IMG/VR virus record: IMGVR_UViG_3300014205_000003
Location: 1-64,000 of that record
Strand: one strand, 5' to 3'
Length of the DNA stretch: 64,000 bases
DNA from: a virus
Taxonomy: Duplodnaviria; Caudoviricetes
Of the stretch, positions 23,674 through 47,857 are shown in pieces (the first letter of the stretch is position 1; the number at the start of each line of letters is the position of its first letter). Both the position numbers and the translations under genes were made by a program. A model generated the notes under the pieces. The model was not told where the DNA came from. It searched no databases and saw nothing but the letters and a program-made list of their open reading frames with translations.

Positions 23674-24483
23674 ATGCAGAAGTACTCTGAAGATACAAAG
23701 CAACTCGCTACAGTTATCGCAGGAATCCTCCAGAAGGAAGCAATCACTCCGGGGTATACACCTCAGGGTGGAGGCTATCAAGTACAGCCACCCCTAGTTA
23801 CCCCTCTTCCTGCCACAGCAGCTACCACCTCTCCCGCAGCGGCTGTTAAGAAAGCTTCCAGTCTCGGCAAAGGAGGCAAGTGGGCTATTGCAGGTGTACT
23901 TGCGGCGTTGGGCGTTCCCTATGCCTACAAAGCTATTCAGCGCATGAACTGGGGCAACATGGCCGATCAGAAGATGGGTCCTGAACGCGCGCAGGAAGAA
24001 CTTGCCAAAGAGTACAAGCGGCGTATTGCCGCTCGCGACGAAGCTATGGATGCCTACAAGGGCAAGTGGCAGGAAGATTCTACTGGCGGCTTCTACAATC
24101 CTGAGACAGGTGCTCTCACTGGACGTCAAGCTTTCTTCGCTCGCATGGGCAAGATGAAGAGTTCTGCAGATGCGGCTGAAGCTCAGTGGCTGAAAGATCG
24201 TATCAAGAAGCAGACGCGTTCTGGTACGTTGCTTTCGCCTAGTCTTCCTAATGAGACTGAAGCAGACTTCCAAGCTTGGAAGCAGAAGCGGTTTGAGCCG
24301 GGGATTCTTCCCTTCTTCACACATCATGGAACAATCTTTGGTAAGGATACTGGATTGACTGCGGCGCTTACTGGACGTCGTCCTCTTGGTGGTGGAGACA
24401 AGGCTGAGGACGAAGCGAAGTTGAGGGACATCTACAACAAGGCTCGTGGAAGTCTGTACTCGAATCCTACGGGGACTGTATAA
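23674..24483 (+). CDS. Leader/KxA-family protein with one TM segment
   Basis: IAGILQKEA; WAIAGVLAALGV. Confidence 0.6.
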   Translation: MQKYSEDTKQLATVIAGILQKEAITPGYTPQGGGYQVQPPLVTPLPATAATTSPAAAVKKASSLGKGGKWAIAGVLAALGVPYAYKAIQRMNWGNMADQKMGPERAQEELAKEYKRRIAARDEAMDAYKGKWQEDSTGGFYNPETGALTGRQAFFARMGKMKSSADAAEAQWLKDRIKKQTRSGTLLSPSLPNETEADFQAWKQKRFEPGILPFFTHHGTIFGKDTGLTAALTGRRPLGGGDKAEDEAKLRDIYNKARGSLYSNPTGTV

Positions 24484-24486
24484 CAT

Positions 24487-25587
24487 ATGAAGAATCCACT
24501 GTACAGTTTTTGCTTTGAGAAGAGCGGAGCTACTGTTGGCGGTATTCCTGATTGGAAGAGCACGCTTAAAGGGGAAGTCGTTACAGACAACCCTAATAAG
24601 GTTGTTGGGGGAACTGATAAGTTTCCTGCCAAAGAAATCAAAGTTCCTGAAGCTGTAGGTACTAAGCCTTTGACTACTTGGGGAGATACTCCACGATCTG
24701 TACTAGCACCTTCAGGGGATCTTGCTAAAGATTCCAGGAATCAGTATCACGAAGATCTTAATCAGTCGGCAAACAGGGCACGTGTTACAGCCCTTATGCA
24801 GAACAACGCTGTGACGGAAGCGGATTATGATCTTGCGAGTGAGATTGATCCACGTAGTTATCCTAATCGTCAGCGTAAAGCTCAACTGGCTGAGAAGTAT
24901 AACTCTGTTGTGCGAAACGATGCTCTACTTGCTGAAAAGAAGAAAGCTGAAGATGCTGCTAAAGCTGCTTTGTTAAAGAACCAAGTAGCGCCTCCTCCTG
25001 TTACGGGAGATCCTGGAATTCTTCCTACCGATGTGAAAAAGACGCCAGAAGAGAACAAAGCAACAACGGAAGCACATAATAGAGCTGTTGCTGAAAACAC
25101 TCGTACTATTACAGGACAGGACATTGCAGGGCCTGGAAAAAAGCCTAACGCCTTTCAAGATGCGGGGGCGGGTTCTTTGAATGCCCTAGGTACAACGCCA
25201 GAACTTGCAGCGAAAGCTACTGAAAAGCTTTCTCCAACATACGCAGAACGTCTTGATAAGATGTCTCCAGGACAAGCGGCGGCTGAAGGGGCTCTTGCTG
25301 GATCTGTTGTTCCTGGTGTGGGTACGTTAATTGGGGCGTTTGCTAATCCGATAAATCAAGTAGGTGTTGCTCGTAATCGTGCTAACGAGTCAACAGTAGA
25401 AGCTTCTCGAAAAGAGCAGATCTATCGACTTGACCAACAAATACGTGACCCTAGGAATAAGGCAATTCTTCCTAACCTTTGGAAGTCAGCTATTGCCAGT
25501 GGTGTAATTCCTCCCACAATGAGTCTTCAACAGTTCTCTACTCCTGGAAGTCTGCGTCAATACTTCAATGCGTCCTTTGCTCAGTAA
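24487..25587 (+). CDS. Leader-family protein with Gly zipper
   Basis: MKNPLYSFCFEKSG; GALAGSVVPGVGTLIGA. Confidence 0.6.
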   Translation: MKNPLYSFCFEKSGATVGGIPDWKSTLKGEVVTDNPNKVVGGTDKFPAKEIKVPEAVGTKPLTTWGDTPRSVLAPSGDLAKDSRNQYHEDLNQSANRARVTALMQNNAVTEADYDLASEIDPRSYPNRQRKAQLAEKYNSVVRNDALLAEKKKAEDAAKAALLKNQVAPPPVTGDPGILPTDVKKTPEENKATTEAHNRAVAENTRTITGQDIAGPGKKPNAFQDAGAGSLNALGTTPELAAKATEKLSPTYAERLDKMSPGQAAAEGALAGSVVPGVGTLIGAFANPINQVGVARNRANESTVEASRKEQIYRLDQQIRDPRNKAILPNLWKSAIASGVIPPTMSLQQFSTPGSLRQYFNASFAQ

Positions 25588-25608
25588 TCCTGTATAGTAT
25601 TCCTTCAT

Positions 25609-26319
25609 ATGCAACCAGATATTCCAGTAGTCATCACGAACTTCAATCGCTTCGAGCCATTTCTCCAACAGGTGAAGTGGCTTCGAACTTTAGAAGGCCT
25701 TTCACAGATCCATATCTTGGACAATGCTTCTACCTATCCTCCCCTCCTTGACTACTACTCTGCAAATCCTGACAACCTTTCTATACATCGTATGTCCACT
25801 AATACTGGACACTTGGCCTTTAAGAACAACATCTTGTCTATTACAGATACCAAAGATCGTATCCTTGTAACTGATCCAGACTTGATTCCTTATCCTACAA
25901 CTCCTAGTGATATTCTGCAGAAGATGCACAGACTCTTGGATACTCACTTAGACACTCACAAGATTGGCGCTGGACTAGGCATCAAGGATATTCCAGATTG
26001 CTATCCCTTTGCCAACGACGTCAGGAGACACGAGAGCAACCTTCTAGGGGCAATCTATCCAGACGGGAGTAGAAAGTCTTTGGTAGACACTACGTTTGCC
26101 TTGTACAGGTGTCCTGAGGCCTTTGGCAACTGGAGAGATCAAGCCATTCGTACAGTGCATCCATATATGTTGAAGCACGTAGATTGGTATGTTGATCCCG
26201 AAAACCTTTCAGAAGAGTACATTTATTACTTAGAGCATTGTACAGAGTCTGCAAGCTATGCGTGGAAGCTGAAAGACTGGATGACAAGACTCAAGATCAA
26301 TTGGAAGAAACGACAATGA
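25609..26319 (+). CDS. GT2-like glycosyltransferase
   Basis: VVITNFNR, ILDNASTY, VTDPD and VDTTFALY. Confidence 0.75.
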   Translation: MQPDIPVVITNFNRFEPFLQQVKWLRTLEGLSQIHILDNASTYPPLLDYYSANPDNLSIHRMSTNTGHLAFKNNILSITDTKDRILVTDPDLIPYPTTPSDILQKMHRLLDTHLDTHKIGAGLGIKDIPDCYPFANDVRRHESNLLGAIYPDGSRKSLVDTTFALYRCPEAFGNWRDQAIRTVHPYMLKHVDWYVDPENLSEEYIYYLEHCTESASYAWKLKDWMTRLKINWKKRQ

Positions 26320-26624
26320 ATAAAAATGCTCTCAATGCTTTTTATGCAGGATATATGACTAAGGAGTCAAGTAAGAACACAGAGATTAGCGCTCAAGGAA
26401 ATATTGCAGCTCCTAAGCGGACTCTGTCTAATTTGAATCCTGCTAAACCTATGGACATGTCTGATTCTCCTTTGAGTGGTGCTAAGCGAGAGAATGCAGG
26501 ACAAGAAATTACCAAAGGACAGATTACAAATGAAATCAAGGCTCCTGCCGGTGCTGGTACGCCAAAAACACCTACACCATTGGTAGCAGGACCTACTACG
26601 TCTCCTCTGTGGACTCCTCCTTAA
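26316..26624 (+). CDS. AFxxGY-leader protein
   Basis: MNKNALNAFYAGYMTKES. Confidence 0.65.
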   Translation: MNKNALNAFYAGYMTKESSKNTEISAQGNIAAPKRTLSNLNPAKPMDMSDSPLSGAKRENAGQEITKGQITNEIKAPAGAGTPKTPTPLVAGPTTSPLWTPP

Positions 26625-28093: not shown

Positions 28094-29947
28094 GTGGGCA
28101 AACGACTAAGTATTCGTCGAGTACCATATGCGCTGACAGCGCCTATCTTCAAGTCTCTTACTCGGATGCTCTATCCGAAGAACGTTGAAGAGACTATGGC
28201 GTGGGCGTCAGAGCTGTGGAAACATCACGGACTCTACGCTCAGGCTATCCGCAAAGCTGTAAGATACTTCATGACAGAAGTAGAGCTTACAGGCAAAGAT
28301 GTAAGCTTCTCAGAACGCAAGTCATATCTTGAAGTCCTCAACGACAAGTTCAATGTTCTTGGGGAAGTAGCCGCTGTAGGCGATGACTGTATAGGTTGGG
28401 GACAGTCCTTCACTTCTACTTATGTTCCCTTTACTCGCACTCTCTCCTGTCCTTGTGGGTGTGACTGGGGGTTTAGAGTTGCCTCTGAACAGATGGGACT
28501 TACTCATGACAAACAAGGATTCACTATCAAGTGTCCTGCTTGTCGTAAGACTACTCGTCCTCAAGTGAAAGACCGTACGTCTGAAGACAGTCGCAAGAAG
28601 ATGATTGTCAACAGATGGCCTCCGCAGTATGTAAAGATTCGGATGAATCCAATTTCTCGCAGGAAGATCTTTGAAGTAGACATCTGGAATTATGACTGGC
28701 TTGCAGATGGTATTCGCAGTGGTGATCCTCTGTATCTTGAGGACACTCCTATGGAATACATCCAAGCTATTATGAATGACCAGTCCATTGAGTTTACTGG
28801 TGATGGTTTCTTCCACATGATTCTTCCTAATCCTGCCGCAATCGAATGCGACTTGAAGGGCTGGGGAGTTCCTCTCTTTATGAACGAGTTTGAAGATGCT
28901 CTGCGTGTGATCATGCTGGATCGTATGAACGAAGCGATCATGACAGACTGCAGTGTACCTTTCAAAGTCCTTGCTCCTCCTACTGCATCAGGTACTGGAA
29001 GCGATCAGGGCGGCTCGATGGATGCTATGTGGGGCATTGGTCTCAATCAGTTTGCTGGTAATGTCAAGGACATGCTCTTGCGTCATCAGACGAATCCTAC
29101 TGGATACAACTTCCTTCCGTTCCCTCTCGAGTATCAGCAGCTTGGCGGTGGCGCTAAGGATATGGTGAACATTGAGATGATGGAACATGAAGAGATGCGT
29201 CTGTTGAGAGCGATGGGAATCCCTACAGAGTTCTATACAGGATCGTTGAACTCTGCTGGGCCTATTATAGGGCTTCGTATGTTCGAGCGAGAATGGCAGT
29301 TCTTTGCGAAAGCTCTCAACGATTGGATTTCTTGGCTGGTTAGACAGCAAGGACAGCTTATGCAGTGGAGTAAGGTTAAGGCCAACTTGATTCCTGTATC
29401 CATGTATGAAGATCCCAATGAGAAGGGTGTCATCATGGAGATGAACAACGCCGGTAAAGTTTCGGATGCTACAGCGTTCCGTCAGCTTCGCCTGAATCCT
29501 GAGTACGAGGCTCAGAGGATTATGGATGAGCAGGACGAGAAGCAGGACTTGCTTGCGAAGCGTCAGGAGAAGATGCAGGCTCAGGCAGAGAACTCGAGCG
29601 CATTGAAGAGTCCTTCAGTGGCGGCTACTGTTCAATCTCAGCAGGCTCCTCAGGGCGGTCAGGGAGCTCCTGCTGGCGGTCCTACTGGACAAGCTCCTGC
29701 GACACCTGGAGCGGCTGGAGCACAGAGCATGAGTCCTCAAGGTGCTACACTTGATCAGATGATGGCTGATGCAGAGAGCAAAGCTCAAGAGCTCATGCAG
29801 ATGGACTCACTGACCAAAAGACGTAGTATGCAGGACTTGAAGCACAACAACGAGACTATGTACAATCAAGTCAAGGGCTTTTTGGACAAGATGGAGAATG
29901 ACGCAAAGATGCAGGGTCTTCAACAGGCTCGTCAGCCTCAGCAATAA
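28094..29947 (+). CDS. Probable portal protein with Zn-ribbon insertion
   Basis: 617 aa, largely helical, CPCG..CPAC insert, Q/A/G-rich tail, upstream of head-associated genes; inferred from context. Confidence 0.55.
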   Translation: MGKRLSIRRVPYALTAPIFKSLTRMLYPKNVEETMAWASELWKHHGLYAQAIRKAVRYFMTEVELTGKDVSFSERKSYLEVLNDKFNVLGEVAAVGDDCIGWGQSFTSTYVPFTRTLSCPCGCDWGFRVASEQMGLTHDKQGFTIKCPACRKTTRPQVKDRTSEDSRKKMIVNRWPPQYVKIRMNPISRRKIFEVDIWNYDWLADGIRSGDPLYLEDTPMEYIQAIMNDQSIEFTGDGFFHMILPNPAAIECDLKGWGVPLFMNEFEDALRVIMLDRMNEAIMTDCSVPFKVLAPPTASGTGSDQGGSMDAMWGIGLNQFAGNVKDMLLRHQTNPTGYNFLPFPLEYQQLGGGAKDMVNIEMMEHEEMRLLRAMGIPTEFYTGSLNSAGPIIGLRMFEREWQFFAKALNDWISWLVRQQGQLMQWSKVKANLIPVSMYEDPNEKGVIMEMNNAGKVSDATAFRQLRLNPEYEAQRIMDEQDEKQDLLAKRQEKMQAQAENSSALKSPSVAATVQSQQAPQGGQGAPAGGPTGQAPATPGAAGAQSMSPQGATLDQMMADAESKAQELMQMDSLTKRRSMQDLKHNNETMYNQVKGFLDKMENDAKMQGLQQARQPQQ

Positions 29948-30314: not shown

Positions 30315-30878
30315 ATGAACAAGTTCCAAGCAATGACATATCTTGAAGGATACCTGTCAAAAGAAGCTGTTCGTGGAGATCAGCTTGAAATACTGAAAAA
30401 GAGGTTGGAGAATACCCAGCGAGCTTTTGAAGATCCTGCAGCAGTGGAGACAATTTCTGGCTCAAAAGTAAAAAGGGACCTCGATACTGTCGCACAAAGG
30501 TTACAGCAAGCTTTGAATTCAAAACGTGCAGTACGTATGACTGATTACACAGAAGCTCCATATCTGAAGTTGCCGTCCTTAAATGAGTCGGGGTTAGCTC
30601 GCACTACCGAGCTTTATGATCCTGCTTCCAAGCACATACTAAACAGGAACTCAATGGACGCGCACGGCTATAGTCTTAGGGAGTTGGCCAAAAGTATGCG
30701 CGTAGCAAAGAAAGATGTGTCGTCAGCAAACAAGGAATTGCCCTCGCTGGTTCGTAAGGGGGAAACTATACTCAAAAACAAAGCAAAGGCACAGGGAGCA
30801 TCCGTGCGAAATATTGCTAAGCCCATATCTAAAGGCCTTGTAGACTTTTTGCAAAGCGTCTTAAAGCGTGTGAAATAA
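30315..30878 (+). CDS. Leader-family protein
   Basis: MNKFQAMTYLEGYLSKEA. Confidence 0.65.
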   Translation: MNKFQAMTYLEGYLSKEAVRGDQLEILKKRLENTQRAFEDPAAVETISGSKVKRDLDTVAQRLQQALNSKRAVRMTDYTEAPYLKLPSLNESGLARTTELYDPASKHILNRNSMDAHGYSLRELAKSMRVAKKDVSSANKELPSLVRKGETILKNKAKAQGASVRNIAKPISKGLVDFLQSVLKRVK

Positions 30879-30897: not shown

Positions 30898-31245
30898 ATG
30901 CAGAACAAACAACAGCTCGAGGCTTTCTACACAGGGTACGTTCAGAAGACTGCTATGAATATCCCTCCTGTGGTAGGGGATGCGGCTAAATTTGCAGGAG
31001 CGGCAGCTCAGTCTACAGGGTCGGAACTTTTGCGGAAACTGAAATCGGTAGTCCCGTTTCTAAAAAAGGTTCAGGAAGACGCTGGTTTAACAGGTGACGA
31101 TTTTAAGATGGTCGGTAGAGTGTTGAACAAAACAAAACCGTCTATTGCAGTCGGTGCCGCCGCTGGTTTACCCGTAGGAGCTGCTTTAGGTTCAGCTCTT
31201 AAGAAAGACGAGAAGCCTGTGGATCTTGCTACTGCGAAGGTGTAA
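30898..31245 (+). CDS. Leader-family protein
   Basis: MQNKQQLEAFYTGYVQKTA. Confidence 0.65.
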   Translation: MQNKQQLEAFYTGYVQKTAMNIPPVVGDAAKFAGAAAQSTGSELLRKLKSVVPFLKKVQEDAGLTGDDFKMVGRVLNKTKPSIAVGAAAGLPVGAALGSALKKDEKPVDLATAKV

Positions 31246-31526: not shown

Positions 31527-32295
31527 CCCCTTCCAATTGACGCGCAAGTACCAAGAATCTGTAGGCAACGATCCGAGGAGAGATATTCCTTTCCTTGCAG
31601 GAGCTGCGGGGCTTGGTACGTATGCTTTGGCTAAACCTCTCGTCAGTGCTCTGGTAAGTGCTGCAGGTACTGCTGGTGGTCCACAGATGCAACAAGGCAT
31701 CCAAGACTACTTAGCTCCTGGTGGTGACGTAGAGAAGACTCGACGTCGCTTAACCATTATGGCAGCTCTTGCCGCTGCTGCTTATGGTGTATACAAGCAC
31801 GGGGACACTCGTGGTGGTTGGCAAGGCATGAAGGCAAGTCTTACAGATCCTGACTACTGGAAGAAGAATCCTCAGCGTGTTGAAGCATACAAGACAAAGG
31901 TTCCTCCGACACTTGCGGAGCAGGAAGCAGATGCTGTCAGTATGACGAAGACTGCTTATGGCCTTGATGAAGGCTTCAACAAGAATCCCTACTTCCGTGA
32001 GAACATTCCTGTAGGAGCTTCGATCAATCTTATTAGGAACGATCCTATTCTCTTTCAGAGTTCTAGGAACAAGGTAAGTTCTTTGCTTACTAGCAGTGCG
32101 TCTGGCACACATACAAGCAGTTTCAACTTGACTAATGCTGCTGTGAATGCTGGAGTGGACTTCGGAGCGGCTTATTTGTTTGGACAGGGTGTTGGAAAGA
32201 TCTTGGCTATTCCTCAGCCAGTTGTGAATCGTGTAAGTATGGCTGGAGGACTTGCCGCTGCTGTAATCGGATCTGGAGTGCTTAAACAGCTATGA
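31519..32295 (+). CDS. Gly/Ala-rich membrane-type protein with internal MTKTA
   Basis: Several hydrophobic helices. Confidence 0.6.
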   Translation: MPDPFQLTRKYQESVGNDPRRDIPFLAGAAGLGTYALAKPLVSALVSAAGTAGGPQMQQGIQDYLAPGGDVEKTRRRLTIMAALAAAAYGVYKHGDTRGGWQGMKASLTDPDYWKKNPQRVEAYKTKVPPTLAEQEADAVSMTKTAYGLDEGFNKNPYFRENIPVGASINLIRNDPILFQSSRNKVSSLLTSSASGTHTSSFNLTNAAVNAGVDFGAAYLFGQGVGKILAIPQPVVNRVSMAGGLAAAVIGSGVLKQL

Positions 32296-32840
32296 GTATT
32301 TTAGACGAATCTGTTAGGTCTAATATTCAGAACATCAAGAAGTTGTTGGCTGCTATAGAGCGCGAGACACCTTCGATGTCACATCTTGCTGCAGATAGAT
32401 CGAGAGCTACTGGTTATAATCCTAGAGAGGTACTCAAGAAGATCTTTCCAGATTACGAAACTACATTAAGTAAGAACTCTAAGGATGTTTCCAATATGCC
32501 CACTAAACAAGCTTCTAAAGCTTACTTCAACGGATACATGTTTAAGAACGCTGGTTGGGGCGAAGCTCTTGGCGGCATCTTGGACAAGGCCACTGGAAGT
32601 GCCTTAGCTCTTGGACAGAACACAGCTCTATTGGCTCCTGCGGCTGCTGGCTTGCTTGGTGGAGCGGCTGTAAGTAAGTTGACTTCTCCTTCTGGTGAGG
32701 CAACTGTTGCTCAGAAGGCTTTGATTGCAGCTGAGTTGGAAGAAGCTGTTGCAGAGATGAAGCGTCAGCGTAAAATTGAAACCATTAAAGAGGTCATGCG
32801 AGATGGACAAGGATACAAAGGTAGAAGTCTCCACATCTAA
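32292..32840 (+). CDS. Protein with internal leader motif and Gly zipper
   Basis: MPTKQASKAYFNGYMFKNA at 32496. Confidence 0.6.
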   Translation: MSILDESVRSNIQNIKKLLAAIERETPSMSHLAADRSRATGYNPREVLKKIFPDYETTLSKNSKDVSNMPTKQASKAYFNGYMFKNAGWGEALGGILDKATGSALALGQNTALLAPAAAGLLGGAAVSKLTSPSGEATVAQKALIAAELEEAVAEMKRQRKIETIKEVMRDGQGYKGRSLHI

Positions 32841-34024: not shown

Positions 34025-34339
34025 ATGTCTAACGTAAAATTGCAGGCCTTTTACACAGGATATATGGAGAAACGTGCAGAGTTTCCTCCAGAAGCAAATG
34101 ACATTACTGGTGGGAAGATTAACCAGCTCCCAGAAGTGAAGAAAGCTACTTTAGAAGTTGTTAAGCCTGTTGCGGCGAAAGCACCCGCAACCTTTGTTGA
34201 TCCTGCTCCTAAGATGTCAGCAAATGCTCAACAGGTAGCTAACGAGACTATGCAGGATGCTGAGCGTATCAAAAAGAAACAAGCAACAGTTCCTGCACAG
34301 ACAGTAAAACGTGTGTCTTCGACTCCTAAGGACAAGTAA
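34025..34339 (+). CDS. Leader-family protein
   Basis: MSNVKLQAFYTGYMEKRA. Confidence 0.65.
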   Translation: MSNVKLQAFYTGYMEKRAEFPPEANDITGGKINQLPEVKKATLEVVKPVAAKAPATFVDPAPKMSANAQQVANETMQDAERIKKKQATVPAQTVKRVSSTPKDK

Positions 34340-34340: not shown

Positions 34341-34898
34341 ATGGCTACCTTGGCAATTCAAGCATTCTTCGAAGGTTACATGACCAAGCAAGCTTCTCCA
34401 CTTGAGGGAGATGCTCCTACAGCTGGGACTGGCGGTGCTGGTCCTTCTCAGGAAGCTACTGGAGCTCTTGGAAGTGCTGTCGGCCAACCTGCAGGTGCTC
34501 AGCCTACGGCAGATGCTCAGCAAGGCCCTTCGAATGTTGCTCCTGATGCTTCTGCTGGAGCGGCTCCTGAGCAGGCTTCTGTGGGTGTTCAAGAGGCCCC
34601 TGCAGCCTTCAACAGTCCTATGCAGAAAGAGATGGCAGAGCGCGAGAAGAATAAGAAGAAGAATGCGGAAGCTGTTGCCAAGACTACTGAGAAAGTCCGT
34701 GGTGACATTCAGAAGCATGAGCAGAAGGCTCAAGAAGCTGTTCAGGAAGTTAAGGTTTCTCAGGTTAAAGGTAATTCTGAGATTCAGAAGGCTAACGCTG
34801 TTGCTCAAGTGTCCGCTCAGCAAGACAACCAGCTTGCAAAACAGCTTCAGCAGATGATGCCGAGAGCTATGCAACAGCAACCTCAGCAAGTCGCGTAA
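34341..34898 (+). CDS. Leader-family protein (A/Q/P-rich)
   Basis: MATLAIQAFFEGYMTKQA. Confidence 0.65.
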   Translation: MATLAIQAFFEGYMTKQASPLEGDAPTAGTGGAGPSQEATGALGSAVGQPAGAQPTADAQQGPSNVAPDASAGAAPEQASVGVQEAPAAFNSPMQKEMAEREKNKKKNAEAVAKTTEKVRGDIQKHEQKAQEAVQEVKVSQVKGNSEIQKANAVAQVSAQQDNQLAKQLQQMMPRAMQQQPQQVA

Positions 34899-34913: not shown

Positions 34914-35144
34914 ATGAATATCCAACTACAAGCCTTTTATGCCGGATACATGAATAAGGATGCCAACTCAACTACAGAGAGTCCTACTGTGGATACTCCT
35001 GTAGCCAAGGTTGATCCTGTAGATCCTTCTGCAGAAAAGGGAATGGCAATCTCTACTAATTCTACTCCTACAGGGTTTGGTAAGGTGTTGAAGCAGAACA
35101 AGTCGATTTCTGTTCCTGAGAACAAGACTTCTGGAAACACCTAA
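34914..35144 (+). CDS. Leader-family protein
   Basis: MNIQLQAFYAGYMNKDA. Confidence 0.65.
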   Translation: MNIQLQAFYAGYMNKDANSTTESPTVDTPVAKVDPVDPSAEKGMAISTNSTPTGFGKVLKQNKSISVPENKTSGNT

Positions 35145-35353
35145 TGGATAAGCTGGCAGCATTCTTTGCAGGATACATGCACAAGTGTGCGGCTCTTCCA
35201 GCTGTGTTGCCGCCTTCTCCAATAACTGCTGATCCTGCGACAACCTACAAGACTCCTAGGACTAAGGGAACTCCTCAGCCAGGACAAGTTGTACAGAACA
35301 GTCCACTTCCTACGACTCCTTCAAATGTTATTCAGGAAGGTCCTTCGAAATGA
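35144..35353 (+). CDS. Leader-family protein
   Basis: MDKLAAFFAGYMHKCA. Confidence 0.65.
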   Translation: MDKLAAFFAGYMHKCAALPAVLPPSPITADPATTYKTPRTKGTPQPGQVVQNSPLPTTPSNVIQEGPSK

Positions 35354-36327
35354 CAAAGCTTCAGACTCTTATTTATCTTCAAGGCTACCTGAGCAAGGAA
35401 GCTTTCGACTTCAATCCTTTTGGCGATCGCAAGGGGCGTGCACAAGATGCTAAGGCAAATGCTCGTACTGCTAAGATCAATGCAGCTGAAGCTAAGTCGA
35501 ATCGTCAGAGCTACTTGACTGCTAATGATCTAGGGCTTCAAGATGCTTTAGCTAATCGTGCAACAAATAAAGGTGTGTATGGTCAGATGACTGCAGCGGC
35601 AAATGCTAAAGCTGCTCAGACGCCTGCACCGACTCCTGCTGCTTCTCCAGAGCCTATGCAAGATCCTGCGATTACTCGAGCACAGCAAGTAGCTGCCGCT
35701 AAGAAGATGTCTCCCTATATGCGCGGAAGCACAATGCCTCGGGCTCAACAGCTTAATCAAGCTGCTCCAACTGTTGCACAAGCAACTCCTACAGCTACTC
35801 CTAAGACTGTTGTTGATCCTAATCCGATGAATACAGGAAATGTAGGCGAGAAGCAACGCACAGCACTTTTACAAGAAGAACAACCAAACATGAATCGGTT
35901 AGCTATTCAAACAAAAGCACCTGCAATGCCTCAGTATCCTAGGAAAAATGTTGTTCCTACCTCGCCTAGACCTACGAGAGCTCAAGCGGCGGCACTGAAG
36001 GGTGAGGTAGCTAGTATTAAAGCAGCGCAGACAGCCCAAACACAACAACCTGCAGCAACTCCTTCGTTTAGACCTGTTGCAGCTGTTCCCCAAGGACGTG
36101 CGGCGTATACAGCAAGTAACAAAGATGATATGGGTCAAATTAGAGCAGGTACTGCTACAATGAATCCCGAATGGCTAAAAAGACCGTCTGGGGATTTTTC
36201 AAATAGTCAAAAGCGTCGAGATCTGATTAGAAATCAGCTGGTTGCTTTGCAAAGAGGGAAACGGACTCCAGATATTAACCAAGTTGCAAAAAATACGGGT
36301 GTTAACCTGCTTCTTCCGGCACTATAA
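35350..36327 (+). CDS. Leader-family protein (basic, A/P/Q-rich)
   Basis: MTKLQTLIYLQGYLSKEA. Confidence 0.65.
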   Translation: MTKLQTLIYLQGYLSKEAFDFNPFGDRKGRAQDAKANARTAKINAAEAKSNRQSYLTANDLGLQDALANRATNKGVYGQMTAAANAKAAQTPAPTPAASPEPMQDPAITRAQQVAAAKKMSPYMRGSTMPRAQQLNQAAPTVAQATPTATPKTVVDPNPMNTGNVGEKQRTALLQEEQPNMNRLAIQTKAPAMPQYPRKNVVPTSPRPTRAQAAALKGEVASIKAAQTAQTQQPAATPSFRPVAAVPQGRAAYTASNKDDMGQIRAGTATMNPEWLKRPSGDFSNSQKRRDLIRNQLVALQRGKRTPDINQVAKNTGVNLLLPAL

Positions 36328-37271
36328 TGACATCTCTCTCACATCTCCTAGAGAAAGACGCAGCTCCTGTTGCGGGTCGAGGTCCATTGAAGACCGTCCT
36401 GCGACAAGCTGTTGATCATCCAGACAATCACGCTGTCTCTGAAGACCAGTTGATTGACCTGCATGACTATCCACGCCATCGCCAAGACATCTTCGACAAA
36501 ACCCTCAAAGGTGTCGAAGCCGCCTTCCCAAAAGCCAATACTAAACATACGTTGACAGTAACTGATCTGCACTACGATGGTCCTGATCACTACTCCAAAG
36601 AAGACTACAAGAACGCGATTCTTGAACGACGTTCGATGACTCGCAAGCTTGTAGGAAAGTACGTCCTTACAGACAACGCAACAGGTAAAGTGATTTCGAC
36701 TAGTGGTCGTAAAACCATAATGAACGTTCCTTACTTGACAGATCAAGGGACGTTTTTGCGTAACGGCACAGAATCTGTGATACCTAGGCAGCTTAGGCTT
36801 CAACCAGGAGTCTATACGCATATGACTTCTGATGGATATCCAGAAGCACAGTTCAACGTAAAGCCCGGAACGGGAAGTGGCTTTCGTACTTATCTAGATC
36901 CTGAGACGTCTGTCTTCTATATGACTACACGCGGACGCAAAATTCCCCTTTATCCCCTGATGCAAGCCCTAGGAGTCGATGACAGATCTTTGCAGGCTAC
37001 TTGGGGAGATGAGATCTTCAAGGCCAATCAGGAGATGCGTACGAGTTCTCATGCTGCTCGCTGGCTGAACGAAATGAATACTAAGCTTGCTCCGAAGGTT
37101 GTAGATGTTCCTGAAGTGGAAGAACAGGATGTGAATCCTGGCGACGAAGAACTGCCTACTTCCAATTATCAGGAGACACCTGACGATGAACTCACAGATC
37201 TTACAGTTGGAGAAGCTGATCGATTACCTTCTACCGTTTCTGGAGATCAAGGAATCCTCGAACAACCCTAA
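36327..37271 (+). CDS. RNA polymerase beta subunit, N-terminal fragment
   Basis: [31 protein letters not shown] aligns with RpoB IPLMT..[34 protein letters not shown]. Confidence 0.85.
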   Translation: [314 protein letters not shown]

Positions 37272-39117: not shown

Positions 39118-39375
39118 ATGAGTCAACTTCAATTGCAGGCTTTCTACTGTGGCTATATGGACAAGAAGGCGGCTGATCCTGCTAATCAGCAAGTGCTGGC
39201 AACCAAGCTGCAAGAGGAACAGACGAAACCTAAAGCAGGTATGTGGGGCCAGTTGCCGAGTGTTGTTGGACAGAAAATCAAAGATATAACCCTAGGCAAA
39301 CAGACTACTCCTAGTCTTAATCAGCAGATTGCTCCAGTTAAGAACACTCAGAAAGACTTGATGTCGTCCCTGTAA
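39118..39375 (+). CDS. Leader-family protein
   Basis: MSQLQLQAFYCGYMDKKA. Confidence 0.65.
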   Translation: MSQLQLQAFYCGYMDKKAADPANQQVLATKLQEEQTKPKAGMWGQLPSVVGQKIKDITLGKQTTPSLNQQIAPVKNTQKDLMSSL

Positions 39376-39519: not shown

Positions 39520-39804
39520 ATGATTCCGAGCCCCCTCTCAACTCTAGTTCTCTATGGACTGTATTTACTTGTTGGTGCGAGCGAGTGGTCGCTCTGTGTC
39601 GTTCGTACAAGGGCAATAGCCTTGAATCATGTGCGGACAGCGGTTGTTATTGTCTTTATCGAAAACGCGCTTTCGCTTTGGGTACTCTCGAACTTTGTAA
39701 GAAGTAATGACTTTGGTCTAGCGTTTGCTTATTGCTTAGGTGGTTCAATCGGGGCGTATACAGTTTGTAAGAGTTCTGCGGGGAATAAGACAAATGACAA
39801 ATAA
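39520..39804 (+). CDS. Small 3-TM membrane protein
   Basis: GGAGG RBS; AYCLGGSIGAY. Confidence 0.6.
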   Translation: MIPSPLSTLVLYGLYLLVGASEWSLCVVRTRAIALNHVRTAVVIVFIENALSLWVLSNFVRSNDFGLAFAYCLGGSIGAYTVCKSSAGNKTNDK

Positions 39805-40366
39805 TCAACTGAACGCTTTCTTCACTGGCTACTTGCAGAAGTCTGATACAGACACTATGCAGAAGACTGCCAACAGTGTAGATATGCCTATTGGAGAGTT
39901 CTCCAAGATTCAACCTTGGGATCTGTACAAGCGCTTAGGCATTGCAGACAATACTGGACACGCTCCTCGAATAGAAGCTATCATTGCCAGTCGCAGAGAA
40001 CAAGGACAGCGGCTCAATGGAGATACCGCTAAGGCCTTTGAGTGTACTAAGCTCGCCAATGACTCTACAGATGCACGCAAGTATAGAGACTTCGTCGACA
40101 ACGACGGCAAGTACAACAAGTCAAAAGACACTGATGTAGATAACGAAAAAGCAGAGCTTGCTGCTGGACGTAAGGTAGAGAAGGAACATACGAGTAATCC
40201 TGAGATTGCTACTCGCATAGCGAAGGATCATCTCGTTGAATCCAAGGAAAGTCCTCTAGGATACTACAAGGGCTTGAGCATGCTGGAACGATTCATGGAC
40301 AAGCTCAAGCAGAAAGCACGTCCAACAGAAGCCATCAAAGAGTTCGATGAGGTTACTAAGAAATGA
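39794..40366 (+). CDS. Leader-family protein with DUF5661-like domain
   Basis: MTNNQLNAFFTGYLQKS; GRKVEKEHT..IAKDHL.E...YY..L. Confidence 0.65.
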   Translation: MTNNQLNAFFTGYLQKSDTDTMQKTANSVDMPIGEFSKIQPWDLYKRLGIADNTGHAPRIEAIIASRREQGQRLNGDTAKAFECTKLANDSTDARKYRDFVDNDGKYNKSKDTDVDNEKAELAAGRKVEKEHTSNPEIATRIAKDHLVESKESPLGYYKGLSMLERFMDKLKQKARPTEAIKEFDEVTKK

Positions 40367-40944
40367 CTAGAGCTCAGCAGACAGCTTTCATGCATGGTTA
40401 TCTGGAGAAGTCTGGGAGCATTGTACAGAACGGTATTCGTTTCTTTAGTCGTGCAGGATTAGGTACATCTACACTTAAACCTAGTCAGTTTGAGTTCATA
40501 GAAAGATCCAAAAGCTGGAATCCTGTTAATAGGATGTTTCTAAAGGCTCTTAAAATGGCGGGTGGAGAAAAAGCTTTAGCAAAAATACGTGATGCATCTA
40601 TGCTTGAGGATATACAACCCGGAACAGGTCTTGCAGGAGTCGCGGCGACAGGCGGAAAAGTTGTTGCGTTGGCAGATGCAAAAGCTTTCACGCCAATGCA
40701 ACGACGATCTGTTATAGCACACGAGGCATTTCACGCCAACAATCCGCAGATAGGTAAATATGAGTTACTAGCTCGTCTGTATGGAGGGTATAAATCCCAG
40801 AAGAGTAGCAGTCTGTTCTCCAGACTGAAAGCAAGTGCAGACGAAGGGAGAGATTATATATCTTCCTTCAAGAATCCAGAGTTTGCAAAGCATTATCCTA
40901 AATCTCCTTTTCAGAACGAGACGGTTAGACGTCTTTTTGTGTAA
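40363..40944 (+). CDS. Leader-family protein with HExxH motif
   Basis: MTRAQQTAFMHGYLEKSG; IAHEAFH. Confidence 0.65.
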   Translation: MTRAQQTAFMHGYLEKSGSIVQNGIRFFSRAGLGTSTLKPSQFEFIERSKSWNPVNRMFLKALKMAGGEKALAKIRDASMLEDIQPGTGLAGVAATGGKVVALADAKAFTPMQRRSVIAHEAFHANNPQIGKYELLARLYGGYKSQKSSSLFSRLKASADEGRDYISSFKNPEFAKHYPKSPFQNETVRRLFV

Positions 40945-40970: not shown

Positions 40971-43900
40971 ATGCCCGATGATCTCAAAACACCCATCGTT
41001 GAACCAACTCCTAACTACATCAAGTCCTACTTCGAGAAAATGGAGCTCGATCCTGAATCTGTCCAGTCAACACTCGGTCGTCCGCATACTCATGCGACAG
41101 CCGATGCGATCCTCGACGCCACCTCCAAAGTCCTCAAGCTCTCCCGCCGAGAAGTAGATCCAGACGACAGAGACTCTCTGGAGTTTCAAACTGTCCACGA
41201 TGCTTCCGACTTCCTTCCAGACAAAGTACGTATGGACCAAGGTGGAATATTGCGGAAAGCTCTGTGGAAGCTTACAAACAAGAACGGAGACTTCTCTAAG
41301 GTTCCTGCAGGACTCTTGGACAAACACAATGACAACCTGTTCAACGTCAGTGGTTTAAGCCAAGGCATTGAAGAAACGTCAAATTTCGAGATGTATGATC
41401 AGAACACTCGAGTTCATCGAATGGGTGAAGGCGCTCTTCCTAGCATTGATGCCATTCCTTTGGAAGCACGTGCAGTCTCTCCAAGTTACTTAGGTTTAAT
41501 AGATTGCGTCCGCACCCCCGAAAGTTTGAAGGTAGGTGTTGACCTCAAATTTGCGCGTAATGTGAAGAAGGGTCCTAACAACCTCGTCTATACCAAGATG
41601 CTGGATAAAGATGGGAAAGAGGTTTGGGTATCTTCTAGAGATTTACCTCGGTCGATCGTTATGTTTCCAGACTCTGGAGATAAAAACGATAAGTTCGTGC
41701 CTGCTATTGTTAGAGGACGTACTTTGGAGTATGTGGATAGGAAAACTGTAAATTACACGCTTCCTTCTGGAGATGACATGTTCTCAGAGGGCGGTAATCT
41801 TACTCCTAGTGTGTCTGGTGTAAAAGGTATGCGCTTGTTGCTTGCAGGCAAATATCCTGCGGCAGCACTGTCTATTACAGGACGTGAAGCTCCACTAGTA
41901 CAGACAATGTCTTCTGATGGAACTCCTACGTCCGATCGTATAGGAAAACACTTGGGGCCTTCCTATTCGTCTATTGAGGGTACTGTTACTAAGGTTACTC
42001 CTACAGAGATCTGGATCAAAGATGCTAAGGGTAAGATTGAAAAGAAAGATCTGTACAATGATCATCCGTACATGCGTAAATCCTATCTGCACAACACTCC
42101 TGAAGTAGAAGTCGGGCAGATGGTTAAAGCTGGAGACATTCTAGCTTCCAGCAACTTTACAGACTCTAAGGGTAATGCGGCCTTAGGTGCAAACGTACGT
42201 ATGGCTTACATGCCGCACGATGGTTTGACCTTTGAGGATTCCTCAATCATATCAGAGTCTTTGGCTAAGCGCATGACTTCGTTACATATGTACAACGAAG
42301 ATATTGACACAGATGACGCTACTCGCTTGGATAAGAAGACCTTCATGCAGATGTTCCCTGGAAAGTACTCTAAGGAACAACTGGCTAAGCTGGATGCCAA
42401 AGGCATGGTATTGCCGGGAGTAGTCCTCAATAGTGGCGATCCTATGTTCTTAGGAATTAAGGAAACTCCTCCGGGTCCTGGTAATATGGGACGTGGCTCT
42501 GTTCGACAGGTTGTCAAGAACTGGGAATACGACACTCCCGGAACTGTTGCGTACGCAGCTAAGACTAAGGGAGGCTTTACTGCCTTTGTAAAGACTCAGG
42601 AACCTTTTCAAGAGGGTGGAAAGATTGCTACTCCATATGGAAGCAAGTCAGTAGTTGCTAGAATCTATCCCGACGATCAGATGCCTAGGGACAATCAAGG
42701 ACGTCCTGTAGAGTGGATCATGAGTCCTTTTGGCGTTCAAAGCAGAACGAATCCAGCACTTATTCCTGCAGGAGCTTTAGGTAAGATTGCTGCCAAGACA
42801 GGTATTCCTTACAACCTTAGAGGCTTCAATCCCGGCGAGGTTAAGAAATTTGCAGACGAAGAGCTTGCTAAACATAACATGACCGATAAAGAAGACGTGT
42901 ACGATCCTGTGCGCAAAGTAACAATTCCAGGCATCTATGTTGGAAACGTTTACGCCTACAAGATGCAGCAAACTGCTGAGAATAAAGGACATGCACGTTC
43001 TGTAGGTACGTATAGTGCTGAGGATGTGCCCCTTAAGGGTGGTTCTAGCGGAAGTAAGCATGTGGGCGACATGGAGTGGTTTGGTTTACTTTCTCACAAT
43101 GCAATTGCGAATATCTATGATATGAAGCAAGTTAAAGGTCGTCGCAATGATGACTACTGGCGTCAGGTTAAGCTTGGACAGACTCCTAGTGTTCCCGGAA
43201 CTCCTGTAGTCTATTCCAAGTTCAAAGACTTGCTCAAAGCTGCTGGTGTAAATCTGTCGGAAGGTAAGGACACCACGTCTATCTTTGGTATGACTAACGC
43301 ACAAGCGGAGAAGTTGACAGGTAATCGAGAACTTGACTCTGCTTCTACCTTCAACGCGAATACCTTCAAGCCAATTCCTGGAGGTCTCTTCGATTCTGAT
43401 AAGACAGGTTCGTTGGGGGATGGTAGAGGCTGGAGCTACTACAGTCTTCCAGAACCTTTGCCCAATCCTGTAATGGAAGAGCCTATTCGAGCTTTGCTTG
43501 GAGTTACTAAGAAAGACTTCGACAAAGTGATCTCTGGAGAACTTCCTCTCAACGGTAAGTATGGTGGACAGGCTATTACAGAATACCTGAAGCGTGTCAA
43601 TCTGGATGATGTGATGAACACAGCTTCAGAGACCATTCGCAGTGGCAGTAAGTCTAAGCGAGATGCCGCTGTTAAGGTTTATGGCTACGCCAGTGCCATG
43701 AAGAAGCAGGGTGTACGCCCTGAAGAGTTCATGATGACTCGTGTACCTGTCCTGCCTCCTGCTTGGCGTCCTATTACTGCTAGTGGAGCTCGTACGATGG
43801 TTGCTGATCAGAACTATACGTATCGAGCATTGTTCGACAGTATTCAGGACTACAAGGATTCCATGAGTCTTCCTGAGGATCTTCGACAGACAGCTCGACA

Positions 43901-44663
43901 GAACATGTACAACAGCTACAGAAGTCTCGTAGGCACTACTGATCCTACACAGGAGAAGCTGGTACAGAAGAACGTTGGCGGTTTGCTGGACAGTCTGCTT
44001 GGCAAATCCTCGCCAAAACTGGGATTCTTTCAAAGGCGTGTAATTGGTTCTAACATTGACATGGGTGGTTTAGGGGTTGTTACCTTGAACTCCTCTCTCA
44101 AATTGAACGAAATAGGTTTACCAGAAGCGACTGTCTGGGACTTGTACAGTCCTTTCATTGTTCGTAAGCTTGTTCAGCAGGGTATGCCAGCTATGCAGGC
44201 AGCTGAAGCAATCAAGAGTAAGACAGAACAAGCAGGTAAAGCTCTACAGGGTATTATGAAAGAGCGACCTGTACTGATGAATCGTGCGCCTACCAACCAC
44301 AAGTACAGCATTATGGCTGTGTGGCCTAGAATGACTAAGGGACATTCTGTACAGGTTAATCCTACCCTTATGGGTCCCTACACAATGGACCTGGACGGCG
44401 ACGTTGCAAGTTATTCTGTTCCAGTGAGTAATAACGCTGTCAAGGAAGCAATTGCGCGTATGCTTCCTGAGAAGAATCTGCTGTCTGTTTCAAATGACAA
44501 GCCGATGTATGTTCCGAGTCAGGAGTTTGCTATGGGTGGCTGGACGATGTCCAAGGAGCCTAACAGGGACAAGCCTGTACGTTTCAACACTTGGCAGGAT
44601 GCTGTGAAGGCTTACAAGACTGGGCAGATTAAGGTAGATACTCCTGTAATTGTAGGACGTTGA
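40971..44663 (+). CDS. RNA polymerase beta(C-terminal)-beta'(N-terminal) fusion with catalytic DxDGD
   Basis: TPES, GGKIATPYGSKSVV, SRTN, GDMEW (beta); VPVLPPAWRP, LMNRAPTNH, TMDLDGD (beta'). Confidence 0.92.
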   Translation: MPDDLKTPIVEPTPNYIKSYFEKMELDPESVQSTLGRPHTHATADAILDATSKVLKLSRREVDPDDRDSLEFQTVHDASDFLPDKVRMDQGGILRKALWKLTNKNGDFSKVPAGLLDKHNDNLFNVSGLSQGIEETSNFEMYDQNTRVHRMGEGALPSIDAIPLEARAVSPSYLGLIDCVRTPESLKVGVDLKFARNVKKGPNNLVYTKMLDKDGKEVWVSSRDLPRSIVMFPDSGDKNDKFVPAIVRGRTLEYVDRKTVNYTLPSGDDMFSEGGNLTPSVSGVKGMRLLLAGKYPAAALSITGREAPLVQTMSSDGTPTSDRIGKHLGPSYSSIEGTVTKVTPTEIWIKDAKGKIEKKDLYNDHPYMRKSYLHNTPEVEVGQMVKAGDILASSNFTDSKGNAALGANVRMAYMPHDGLTFEDSSIISESLAKRMTSLHMYNEDIDTDDATRLDKKTFMQMFPGKYSKEQLAKLDAKGMVLPGVVLNSGDPMFLGIKETPPGPGNMGRGSVRQVVKNWEYDTPGTVAYAAKTKGGFTAFVKTQEPFQEGGKIATPYGSKSVVARIYPDDQMPRDNQGRPVEWIMSPFGVQSRTNPALIPAGALGKIAAKTGIPYNLRGFNPGEVKKFADEELAKHNMTDKEDVYDPVRKVTIPGIYVGNVYAYKMQQTAENKGHARSVGTYSAEDVPLKGGSSGSKHVGDMEWFGLLSHNAIANIYDMKQVKGRRNDDYWRQVKLGQTPSVPGTPVVYSKFKDLLKAAGVNLSEGKDTTSIFGMTNAQAEKLTGNRELDSASTFNANTFKPIPGGLFDSDKTGSLGDGRGWSYYSLPEPLPNPVMEEPIRALLGVTKKDFDKVISGELPLNGKYGGQAITEYLKRVNLDDVMNTASETIRSGSKSKRDAAVKVYGYASAMKKQGVRPEEFMMTRVPVLPPAWRPITASGARTMVADQNYTYRALFDSIQDYKDSMSLPEDLRQTARQNMYNSYRSLVGTTDPTQEKLVQKNVGGLLDSLLGKSSPKLGFFQRRVIGSNIDMGGLGVVTLNSSLKLNEIGLPEATVWDLYSPFIVRKLVQQGMPAMQAAEAIKSKTEQAGKALQGIMKERPVLMNRAPTNHKYSIMAVWPRMTKGHSVQVNPTLMGPYTMDLDGDVASYSVPVSNNAVKEAIARMLPEKNLLSVSNDKPMYVPSQEFAMGGWTMSKEPNRDKPVRFNTWQDAVKAYKTGQIKVDTPVIVGR

Positions 44664-45958: not shown

Positions 45959-46229
45959 CTCCCAAGCCCTCTGAATGTCTAGACTACTCCTAAGAACAAT
46001 TCCTGTATGCTTCAAACCACTTGCTGTAAGTGCTCTAAGCAGACACACCCACCTTATCCTTCTTCCGTCGTGCAACATAGCTTCTTCATAGCCCTCCAAT
46101 ATGGTAATAGGACGCTAAATTAGTCTATGTTGTTGATTCAAGCAATGGCAGGGATACAGAGTTCAGTCACTTAGAGTGGTTTCGGTACGAATACGATCAC
46201 ATACGAGTGTTTGCGATAAAGAATTAACT

Positions 46230-47156
46230 ATGACCGAAGCAGACCTTCAAAAACTTGCGGCAATCTCTTGGGGAAAACTTCTGCACGAAGGTTCAGAAGG
46301 GCAGAATGCTTCTAGAGATGCTATCGCAAAACTCTTGCAGATCATGCGCAAGCATACGCCTACAACTTTTCTTCCTCACAAATATCGCTTGCCTAATCTG
46401 TTTAACAAAGCTCCTGACTTCTTCTTTCCTGGTTGGTCAGAGCGAAAAGTTCTAGAGCATCCTGTAACGCAGAAAGTCCTTCAAGCGACTGTAGGTAAAG
46501 TTCCAGGTATGTCCTTGCCTATCTCTAATCTGCCAAACAGGCTTGAGCAGGTTTCTGGACTACTGTCAGATGCCGCTAAGCAGTATACGGCTCCTCTCAG
46601 TAGAGGTGTTAACAAAGCTGTATCTCTTCTTCCTCGTAAGACTCAAAAGATTACACCTCTCAAGGTGGACGATTTGAAGATTACCGACGATGTATCGAAG
46701 CTGGACAAGACAGGTTCAGACGCTTGCAGTCTGTTGCTTCAGAAGCTCGCAGAGAAAAACGATGAGTGGACTGCAGGCGATGTAGCTCTAACAGGCGCGG
46801 CTGGAAGTCTAGCCGCTCCTATCTATGCAGGGTCTGAATATGCTACAATGAAGCACTTGGCCAAGAAGCAACCTGTTGCTCAGGGTTTGATGAATCCTAA
46901 CAAGTGGGCACATGTAATTGCTAAGTTGATCAAAGCCCAGAAAGATGTTGAAGTTTCTGACAAGACACGTGCAACGTATATAAAACAGTGGAACAATGCG
47001 GCTAAGAGTACTTGGAGAAATGGTAGAGACGTTATGCTTACTGCAGAAGGTGTAAATCCTAAGCTGGTTAAAGGCGGTAAGTACAGTTTGATGATTCTTC
47101 CTGCAGTACTTACTGCTTTAGCCATTCAGAGTAAGCATAATGACAAGTTAAGTTAA
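46230..47156 (+). CDS. KxA-family protein
   Basis: LQKLAA, LDKTGS, LQKLAE; C-terminal hydrophobic helix. Confidence 0.6.
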   Translation: MTEADLQKLAAISWGKLLHEGSEGQNASRDAIAKLLQIMRKHTPTTFLPHKYRLPNLFNKAPDFFFPGWSERKVLEHPVTQKVLQATVGKVPGMSLPISNLPNRLEQVSGLLSDAAKQYTAPLSRGVNKAVSLLPRKTQKITPLKVDDLKITDDVSKLDKTGSDACSLLLQKLAEKNDEWTAGDVALTGAAGSLAAPIYAGSEYATMKHLAKKQPVAQGLMNPNKWAHVIAKLIKAQKDVEVSDKTRATYIKQWNNAAKSTWRNGRDVMLTAEGVNPKLVKGGKYSLMILPAVLTALAIQSKHNDKLS

Positions 47157-47179
47157 TAAGTAGAACAAAGGAAACGCAC

Positions 47180-47857
47180 ATGTCAGTTCACACGCAACGT
47201 CTTATCCAGCTTCTGCAAAAAGAAGGCTTCGTTCCTCCGACTCCTCCCCCGCAGGGTATGCCTCCTGGCGCTCCTCCTGCTGATCCGAATGCTGGAATGC
47301 CTCCCCAAGGTGATCCTGCTGCCGCTGGTGCACCTGTTGATCCCGCGACAGGTATGCCAATGGACCCTGCAATGGCTCAGCAGATGCCAGCAGATCCTGC
47401 CGCAATGCCTCCTCCGGGTGATCCTGCAGCTATGGGTGGTGCACCTGTTGATCCTGCTACAGGTATGCCGATGGACCCTAACGCTATGCCTGCTGATCCC
47501 AATGCTCAGCCGCCAGTTCCTACTCTTGCAGAGATTCCTGTGGATCAGTTCATGGCGATGATGCAGGACATGATGACTGCTGGTAAAGCTCCTGAGGGTC
47601 CTGCGGATGACGGCAAGAAAGAATCTGTTGCCGATCTGAGCAAGCGCATGGAGAATCTTGAAGGTATGCTGAGTCAGCTCCTGCAGGCTTCGGGTATGAT
47701 GCCTCCTGAGCAGGGCGCGGCTCCTATGGCTCCTCCGATGCCTCCTCCTGACGCTACGCAGAAGACTGCCGCTCTTGCTGAGTTGAAGAACAAGAACGCT
47801 GTCAAGAACGCAACTCTGGCAGGCAAGCTTCGTAAACTCGGTGGCGTGGTTCGCTAA
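47180..47857 (+). CDS. Pro/Ala/Met-rich protein with leader-like N-terminus
   Basis: LIQLLQKEG; repeated GAPVDPATGMPMDP; TQKTAA. Confidence 0.65.
   Translation: MSVHTQRLIQLLQKEGFVPPTPPPQGMPPGAPPADPNAGMPPQGDPAAAGAPVDPATGMPMDPAMAQQMPADPAAMPPPGDPAAMGGAPVDPATGMPMDPNAMPADPNAQPPVPTLAEIPVDQFMAMMQDMMTAGKAPEGPADDGKKESVADLSKRMENLEGMLSQLLQASGMMPPEQGAAPMAPPMPPPDATQKTAALAELKNKNAVKNATLAGKLRKLGGVVR

Follow-up and report, generated by a model that had tools for sequence, protein, structure and literature searches.

A leader peptide of 16-19 residues with the consensus x-x-A-F-[Y/F/L]-x-G-Y-[M/L]-x-K-x-A is found at 13 places in the genome of an uncultured phage (Caudoviricetes; IMG/VR record IMGVR_UViG_3300014205_000003). 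The genome is complete, with 188,069 bp and direct terminal repeats, and the window analyzed here is its first 64 kb (64,000 nucleotides). By analogy with the capsid targeting sequence (CTS) of phage T4, the leader is probably a capsid-targeting propeptide joined to a protease site and carried by head-internal proteins. A tag that both targets proteins to the capsid and is cleaved had been the original prediction for this DNA; its cleavage half is now well supported by sequence statistics, while its address and injection halves are argued by analogy.

A six-frame scan of the window with a regular expression gave 12 matches (26334, 30333, 30919, 32517, 34043, 34359, 34929, 35156, 35368, 39136, 39812 and 40381), all on the + strand and in coding frame, as compared to 0.04 expected from mononucleotide shuffles of the genome. 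The thirteenth copy lies just past the window, at genome position 65918. All copies are on the + strand and confined to 26-66 kb of the genome, the region of the portal, polymerase and head genes, where that strand carries nearly all genes. With a profile built from 42 leaders, the hits in the whole genome at E ≤ 0.1 were these 13 places and no others, and an 18-position hidden Markov model (HMM) gave every true copy at least 15 bits, with no other sequence above 6 bits. Among automatically called genes, eight leader matches were observed versus 0.02 in within-protein shuffles. The claim that a dozen or more unrelated open reading frames (ORFs) share one N-terminal peptide was borne out.

The Gly of G-Y is residue 10-13 in 12 of the 13 proteins, in which the leader is N-terminal; in the remaining protein it follows an internal ATG. 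As had been proposed, similarity stops directly after the leader: conservation in the alignment is gone after K-x-A, and the post-leader sequences gave no BLASTP pair at E < 0.4. Codon usage within the leaders is mixed, with four Gly codons, three or four Ala codons and a mean nucleotide identity of 55%. Since the peptide has been kept while its codons have scrambled, selection acts on the peptide, in agreement with the earlier reading of the synonymous divergence. The copy after an internal ATG belongs to leader gene 4 (32292..32840, + strand; leader 32496-32552), a member of a glycine-rich family conserved in the clade. It had been described as an internal copy. While the leader copy is real, it is probably not internal, because the ATG is preceded by an AAGGA ribosome site and homologues of 102-119 aa in other phages begin with the leader; the 68 codons upstream of this ATG are open in frame.

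The leader end, [M/L]-x-K-x-A, is a copy of a motif, Phi-x-K-x-A (Phi being L, M, I, V, F or Y), that is strongly enriched in the head proteins of this phage. In six core head proteins, comprising the window genes starting at 51805, 56352, 57926, 59414 and 60552 plus a 349-aa protein at genome 88176-89225, 41 such sites were observed as compared to 6.5 expected from within-protein shuffles (z 13.8). Patterns without Phi, without Lys (including those with Arg as a substitute) or without Ala were not enriched in these proteins, nor were the T4-type L/I-x-E and phiKZ-type [S/A/G]-x-E patterns. Across the genome, the motif occurs at 2.1-2.6 fold expectation between 21.5 and 100 kb and at 0.7-0.8 fold elsewhere. 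In orthologues from two related contigs, the alignment columns holding the motif are kept while their flanks have diverged, and several sites are conserved as far as the distant cultured phages Arash and D69; Arash has the motif at the equivalent positions of its protease, and the capsid-protein position was compared in D69. From these statistics we infer that the sites in head proteins are real cleavage sites.

The head module spans 51805-62518, and its genes discussed here are on the + strand. A 720-aa head protein (51805..53967) has six positionally conserved sites (1.4 expected), and a 525-aa core-type head protein (56352..57929) has eight (2.1 expected), of which six occupy conserved columns of the alignment. 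A scaffold-like acidic protein (59414..60520) has six sites (1.2 expected), and a small head protein of 141 aa (60552..60977) has three (0.5 expected). The densest set in the genome, 11 sites versus 0.9 expected, is in the 349-aa protein, which is encoded on the - strand outside the window and probably also belongs to the heavily processed core or scaffold proteins; the adjoining gene appears terminase-like when read by eye. The major capsid protein (61544..62518) has a single site at residues 27-31. Among 120 orthologues, 116 have a site within the first 50 residues, ahead of the capsid-protein body, and in 112 it starts at residues 22-27. A capsid protein model of moderate quality (predicted local distance difference test score, pLDDT, 62.6) has only HK97-fold capsid proteins as its best matches, with probability up to 1.00, and 145 homologues of the protein were found in public data.

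Two of the four capsid-protein exceptions contain x-E-K-T-A. A similar variant occurs in three loci of one lineage (L054, L055 and L056), whose leaders end in G-Y-[M/L]-H-E-K-[T/Q]-A, with an extra residue that breaks the Phi-x-K spacing. The hydrophobic position may be dispensable where Glu precedes Lys.

The enzyme most likely to read this motif is encoded at 57926..59398 (+ strand). The ORF has no Pfam or PHROG match, and its relation to known proteases is visible by fold only. An AlphaFold model (mean pLDDT 81.5) was obtained from an alignment of 27 orthologues, and its residues 1-235 match T4 gp21 (5jbl_A) with Z 11.6 and a root-mean-square deviation of 3.1 Å over 148 of 165 residues, as compared to Z ≤ 4.5 for unrelated chains and ∼3.5 for herpesvirus proteases. 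Foldseek gave a probability of 0.99 for the match to gp21, and His118 and Ser177, the candidate catalytic residues, are invariant in the 27 orthologues. By its predicted fold, the ORF is a gp21-type prohead protease. The protease itself carries Phi-x-K-x-A at residues 245-249, 287-291 and 440-444. The fold ends near residue 235, and the first site, a nearly invariant L-x-K-V-A, lies in the low-confidence linker that follows; the sites at 287 and 440 are also conserved and precede a conserved C-terminal tail, and the helical C-terminal domain is itself conserved. C-terminal self-cleavage has been demonstrated for gp245 of SPN3US, is reported for the protease of phiKZ and is expected for T4 gp21 (PMC5694885, PMC9026906), and the motif in the linker after the fold is the parallel here.

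What distinguishes the leader from an ordinary site lies upstream of Phi. A sequence logo of the 41 core head sites shows no conserved residues there and no A-F-x-x-G-Y, whereas every leader has A-F-[Y/F/L]-x-G-Y directly before Phi. Because ordinary sites lack conserved upstream residues, the leader can be described as a site plus an extra six-residue element. The same distinction bears on three genes that had been listed as weaker copies of the leader. All three are on the + strand, and none is matched by either leader model; each has only an N-proximal Phi-x-K-x-[A/G], namely L-Q-K-E-A at residues 19-23 (23674..24483), F-E-K-S-G at residues 10-14 (24487..25587) and L-Q-K-E-G (47180..47857), where a Phi-x-K-x-A site is kept in two orthologues (L041 and L118). 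By sequence, these are plain protease-type sites and not leaders. Conserved internal proteins such as that encoded at 47180 begin with short stretches that are particular to each protein and end in the plain motif, and the stereotyped leader is found on variable genes.

The leader is read as a targeting element plus a protease site because every sequence-level feature of the T4 CTS is present, with a different peptide and a different site. Under this proposal, it would be a two-part N-terminal propeptide of head-internal proteins that are probably ejected with the DNA. The first part, A-F-[Y/F/L]-x-G-Y, which is absent from ordinary sites, would be the putative address: by binding a conserved component of the prohead (the scaffold or core, or the inside of the shell), it would cause any protein that carries it to be built into the prohead. 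The second part, [M/L]-x-K-x-A, has the maturation-site motif and would most likely be cut inside the prohead by the protease encoded at 57926-59398, freeing the cargo while the short leader would leave the head. The bond that would be cut can be placed in two ways. If the bond after Lys were cut, the T4 spacing of Phi-x-charged would be retained; a cut after Ala would agree with the strict need for Ala and with the E, A or S that follows, as in herpesvirus proteases. Since the tag is portable, the clade could swap its cargo genes quickly.

The leader genes of the window are all on the + strand. Gene 1 (26316..26624; leader 26316-26369) encodes 102 aa, gene 2 (30315..30878; leader 30315-30368) 187 aa and gene 3 (30898..31245; leader 30898-30954) 115 aa; leader genes flank the portal gene (28094..29947, + strand), which has no Phi-x-K-x-[A/G/S] site, on both sides here and in relatives. 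Beyond gene 4, a tandem run comprises gene 5 (34025..34339, 104 aa; leader 34025-34078), gene 6 (34341..34898, 185 aa, acidic and of low complexity; leader 34341-34394), gene 7 (34914..35144, 76 aa; leader 34914-34964), gene 8 (35144..35353, 69 aa; leader 35144-35191) and gene 9 (35350..36327, 325 aa, isoelectric point (pI) 10.7; leader 35350-35403). Three more follow: gene 10 (39118..39375, 85 aa; leader 39118-39171), gene 11 (39794..40366, 190 aa; leader 39794-39847) and gene 12 (40363..40944, 193 aa; leader 40363-40416). The leader of gene 11 ends in K-S-D, and a canonical M-Q-K-T-A site is located eight residues further on.

The cargo pI is at least 9.5 in 10 of the 13 proteins of this genome. 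Searches of the cargo and head-module proteins against Pfam and PHROGs yielded nothing except a weak, sub-threshold DUF5661 match in gene 11 and one sub-threshold HTH_38 match. The gene 12 protein contains H-E-x-x-H, and its likeness to zincin-type peptidases is weak and serves as a lead only, as do the other atlas look-alikes of the cargoes (LPD23 and DUF5661). Across the clade, the 59 distinct leader proteins from all loci form 53 cargo clusters, which puts the leader on at least 53 unrelated cargo families. Their median length is 146 aa and their median pI 9.5, with 38 of 54 basic and cargoes ranging from 53 to 831 aa. One orthologous glycine-rich family shows, in different phages, every step from a full leader to a plain Phi-x-K-x-A start.

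Some relatives have tandem leaders 12-25 residues apart, or a leader including its Met in the middle of proteins of 400-500 aa (P0190-P0193, P0195, P0199 and the locus L101 gene at 11834), which suggests gene fusions or polyprotein-like cargo. In two relatives, a ferritin-family gene (PF00210) lies three genes past the portal and just after a leader gene (L042 6610-7326 and L043 5323-6039), an arrangement reminiscent of encapsulin ferritin cargo.

Relatives were collected via portal homologues as 80 loci from metagenomes and IMG/VR; in the IMG/VR portal search, a single-sequence scan was empty and alignment-based scans were productive. The leader HMM found ∼50 further N-termini in these loci. 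All lie on the strand of the portal gene, and the portals of these phages share 34-53% identity with the present one. This extends the whole-genome scan to related phages, as had been proposed. The HMM found none in a rumen clade with portals 26-28% identical and none in Arash or D69. Near-complete relatives have seven, three, one and zero copies, and the highest count observed, 13, is that of the present phage. When 1.84 billion representative proteins were searched with a profile, 18 hits were returned at E ≤ 0.001, of which 16 are apparently genuine; these are mostly N-terminal, with a few tandem or internal. The leader is restricted to one portal-defined clade of uncultured phages.

A scan of IMG/VR with a degenerate DNA pattern produced 33 loci. 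Only one of them (L019) both has the leader at an N-terminus and belongs to a contig related to the present phage, and it lies beside a portal of the clade. The other matches were rejected as an unrelated segment in long proteins or as chance. Most consist of K-A-F-F-L-G-Y-M-V-K in proteins of >1,000 aa, several of them on giant-virus (GVMAG) contigs. This mimic, K-A-F-[F/Y]-L-G-Y-M-[V/I]-K (L005, L012-L014, L017, L022, L024, L025, L028 and L030), contaminates pattern searches. The long proteins are presumably Rpb2 polymerase subunits, and the likeness is taken as chance.

The same observations can be read differently. If the leader served processing only, its 11-residue block would be an extended, high-affinity protease site, perhaps also blocking the activity of the cargo outside the head, and packaging would depend on the mature parts. 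The protease-type end of the leader agrees with this, as do the tandem leaders in some relatives, which are expected of redundant cleavage sites, the multi-site propeptides known in phiKZ-like phages (PMC9026906) and the one cargo with an H-E-x-x-H motif. However, the protease does not need A-F-x-x-G-Y, since the 41 core head sites lack it, and 53 unrelated, mostly low-complexity cargoes are unlikely each to hold a packaging determinant of their own. We therefore regard a role in processing only as unlikely. It is improbable that the leaders form a co-assembly module, in which they would bind one another or serve as a segment of scaffold and the cargoes would gather into an inner body or core with no separate receptor. 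The small residues four apart (A-x-x-x-G) between aromatics would permit close helix packing, and the inner body of phiKZ-like phages is built from cleaved proteins (PMC9026906), but the leader has no amphipathic signal, and 0 to 13 copies per genome fit accessory cargo better than a structural core.

A further alternative, raised with the original prediction, was a leader of the kind found on ribosomally synthesized and post-translationally modified peptides (RiPPs) or bacteriocins, which would direct export and be removed by a C39-like peptidase. A truncated start of such a peptidase (Q...C-G) does occur at 44679-44795, directly after the polymerase gene and beside TnpB, but it is a broken fragment in an insertion missing from leader-bearing relatives. 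No intact, linked C39 peptidase or ATP-binding cassette (ABC) exporter was found, the leader ends in K-x-A with no double-glycine site, the cargoes span 53-831 aa, with some reaching 300-800 aa, and the genes lie in the head module, all of which makes this alternative very improbable. There is hardly more to be said for the leader as a functionless relic of a paralogous family in which only the N-terminus stayed similar. While the tandem gene run at 34025-36327 would fit duplication, the peptide was kept as its codons scrambled, and it is the same across portals only 34-53% identical with cargoes completely turned over.

Several points weigh against the capsid-targeting propeptide that we favor. 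Characterized gp21-family proteases all cut after Glu (PMC5694885, PMC9026906), so that a Lys/Ala rule, here predicted from sequence statistics, would have no precedent in the family. The polymerase and the conserved internal proteins have no leader, which makes it dispensable for some internal proteins, and one complete relative with a portal identity of 34% has zero leaders. No cargo received a confident functional assignment from Pfam, PHROGs or atlas look-alikes. Hydrophobic-moment tests gave no significant amphipathicity for the leader, whether it is taken as a helix or a strand; no binding mode can be read from it because of this, and an amphipathic docking helix, considered as a candidate, was dropped. 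What we infer, beyond the sequence patterns and the protease fold, is that the leader is cut and at which bond, that it has a binding partner, and that the cargoes are packaged and injected. The fullest version of the proposal is that a gp21-fold protease switched from the Glu rule to a three-position Phi-x-K-x-A rule and that a sub-clade of these polymerase-packaging phages added a portable six-residue address, with which a rapidly changing repertoire of >50 unrelated, mostly basic proteins and enzymes is loaded for delivery with the DNA. We give this version slightly less than an even chance.

The closest cultured phages are distant, and the only ones are Salmonella phage Arash and Vibrio phages D69, D181 and D148, with portal identities of 23-24% and, for Arash, a capsid protein identity of 27%. 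Homologues in Arash of the polymerase and head proteins were detected in virions, the two polymerase proteins being among the most abundant detected in purified virions (PMC10585845) and the homologue of the main polymerase piece ranking first. Because of these homologues, the polymerase of the present phage is probably packaged too. It is a beta/beta' RNA polymerase encoded in three pieces, an N-terminal piece (36327..37271, + strand), the main piece (40971..44663, + strand) and a third at 48573-50405 (Pfam Rpb2_6, Rpb1_2 and Rpb1_5). In relatives L037, L041 and L044, it is a single chain of 1482-2021 aa, and the polymerase genes of L041 (8300-13747) and L044 (6825-12890) contain intein and LAGLIDADG domains. 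A conserved tag on the polymerase N-terminus was considered and rejected: the N-termini of L037 and L041 have no Phi-x-K-x-A, and that of L044 has only L-S-K-A-G.

In the present genome, a 3.7-kb insert (37186-40944) interrupts the chain near residue 255-270; it has six genes, three of which are leader genes. One of the others (37799-39055) encodes 418 aa with, by eye, an S-adenosylmethionine (SAM)-methyltransferase motif I followed by kinase-like D-x-K-x-x-N and D-F-G motifs; it has no Pfam or PHROG match and no leader. A small ORF at 37186-37587, overlapping the 3' end of the N-terminal polymerase piece, has a borderline Pfam match to Destabilase (i-type lysozyme; 25.9 bits as compared to a cut-off of 26.2). 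Downstream of the main piece, the C39-like fragment, the TnpB gene (44836-45900) and an ORF at 46176-47156 constitute an insertion, since relatives lack them between the polymerase and the Pro/Met-rich gene, the orthologue of that at 47180, which directly follows the polymerase there.

Set beside known systems, the leader most resembles the T4 CTS, and the comparison made in the original prediction is apt (PMC9026906). In T4, Alt and the small basic internal proteins IPI, IPII and IPIII start with a 10-residue peptide that gp21 removes; the upstream residues of this peptide target the proteins to the scaffold core, and its last residues are the gp21 site. The peptide is sufficient to package foreign proteins, and the gene set varies between T-even phages (PMC9026906, PMC5694885). 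Shared with the present system are a short N-terminal peptide on diverged, small, basic, non-conserved proteins, an end motif linked to a gp21-fold protease, the putative targeting residues upstream with the processing residues at the end, and a cargo set that varies between relatives. In contrast, the leader has 16-19 residues and no sequence likeness to the T4 peptide, its implied site is Phi-x-K-x-A rather than L/I-x-E, and there are 13 cargoes in one genome. The lineage is not T4-like either, as its capsid protein is of HK97 size (324 aa) and its polymerase is a fused beta/beta' enzyme.

In phiKZ, 201phi2-1 and SPN3US, propeptides of head and inner-body proteins are cut by gp175/gp245 at [S/A/G]-x-E, and SPN3US gp53 and gp54 have identical N-termini (PMC5694885, PMC9026906). 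These phages, which also have a virion RNA polymerase, are alike in their gp21-type protease acting on many head proteins at a short motif and cutting its own C-terminal part. They are unlike the present phage in that their propeptides are mostly >100 residues and not one shared tag, and in that all cuts follow Glu. In phage P1, an N-terminal signal of ≤30 residues on DarB is enough to bring a foreign protein into the head (PMC9024508). This too is an N-terminal loading signal, with an anti-restriction protein as cargo, but the P1 proteins have no common consensus and the signal has not been reported as cleaved.

Outside phages, encapsulin cargo-loading peptides are short, conserved, usually C-terminal and uncleaved, and bring unrelated cargo into an HK97-fold shell with no protease; the leader differs in being N-terminal, in its motif and in its protease-type end, and so does not belong with them. 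Herpesvirus assemblin, which has the same fold class as gp21, cuts after Ala, with a hydrophobic P3 and an Ala-Ser bond. Its site pattern differs from Phi-x-K-x-A, but it shows that the fold can read a small P1 residue, as a cut after the Ala of Phi-x-K-x-A would require.

If the proposal is true, a sequence rule would name the head-internal, probably injected proteins of a widespread uncultured clade, most of whose cargo genes are otherwise unannotated, and the complete turnover of cargo between relatives would point toward an arms-race function, such as anti-defence, that could be mined. The tag would also offer a direct means of packaging foreign proteins into the capsids of these phages, and the specificity of the gp21 protease family would extend beyond Glu. 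A search of one literature library found no paper describing this leader system. While the principle is known from the textbook logic of T4, what is apparently new is the tag itself, the Lys/Ala rule for a gp21-fold enzyme and the occurrence in a lineage that is not T4-like, which would make this a second, unrelated case of targeting plus cleavage, with a larger cargo set than that of T4.

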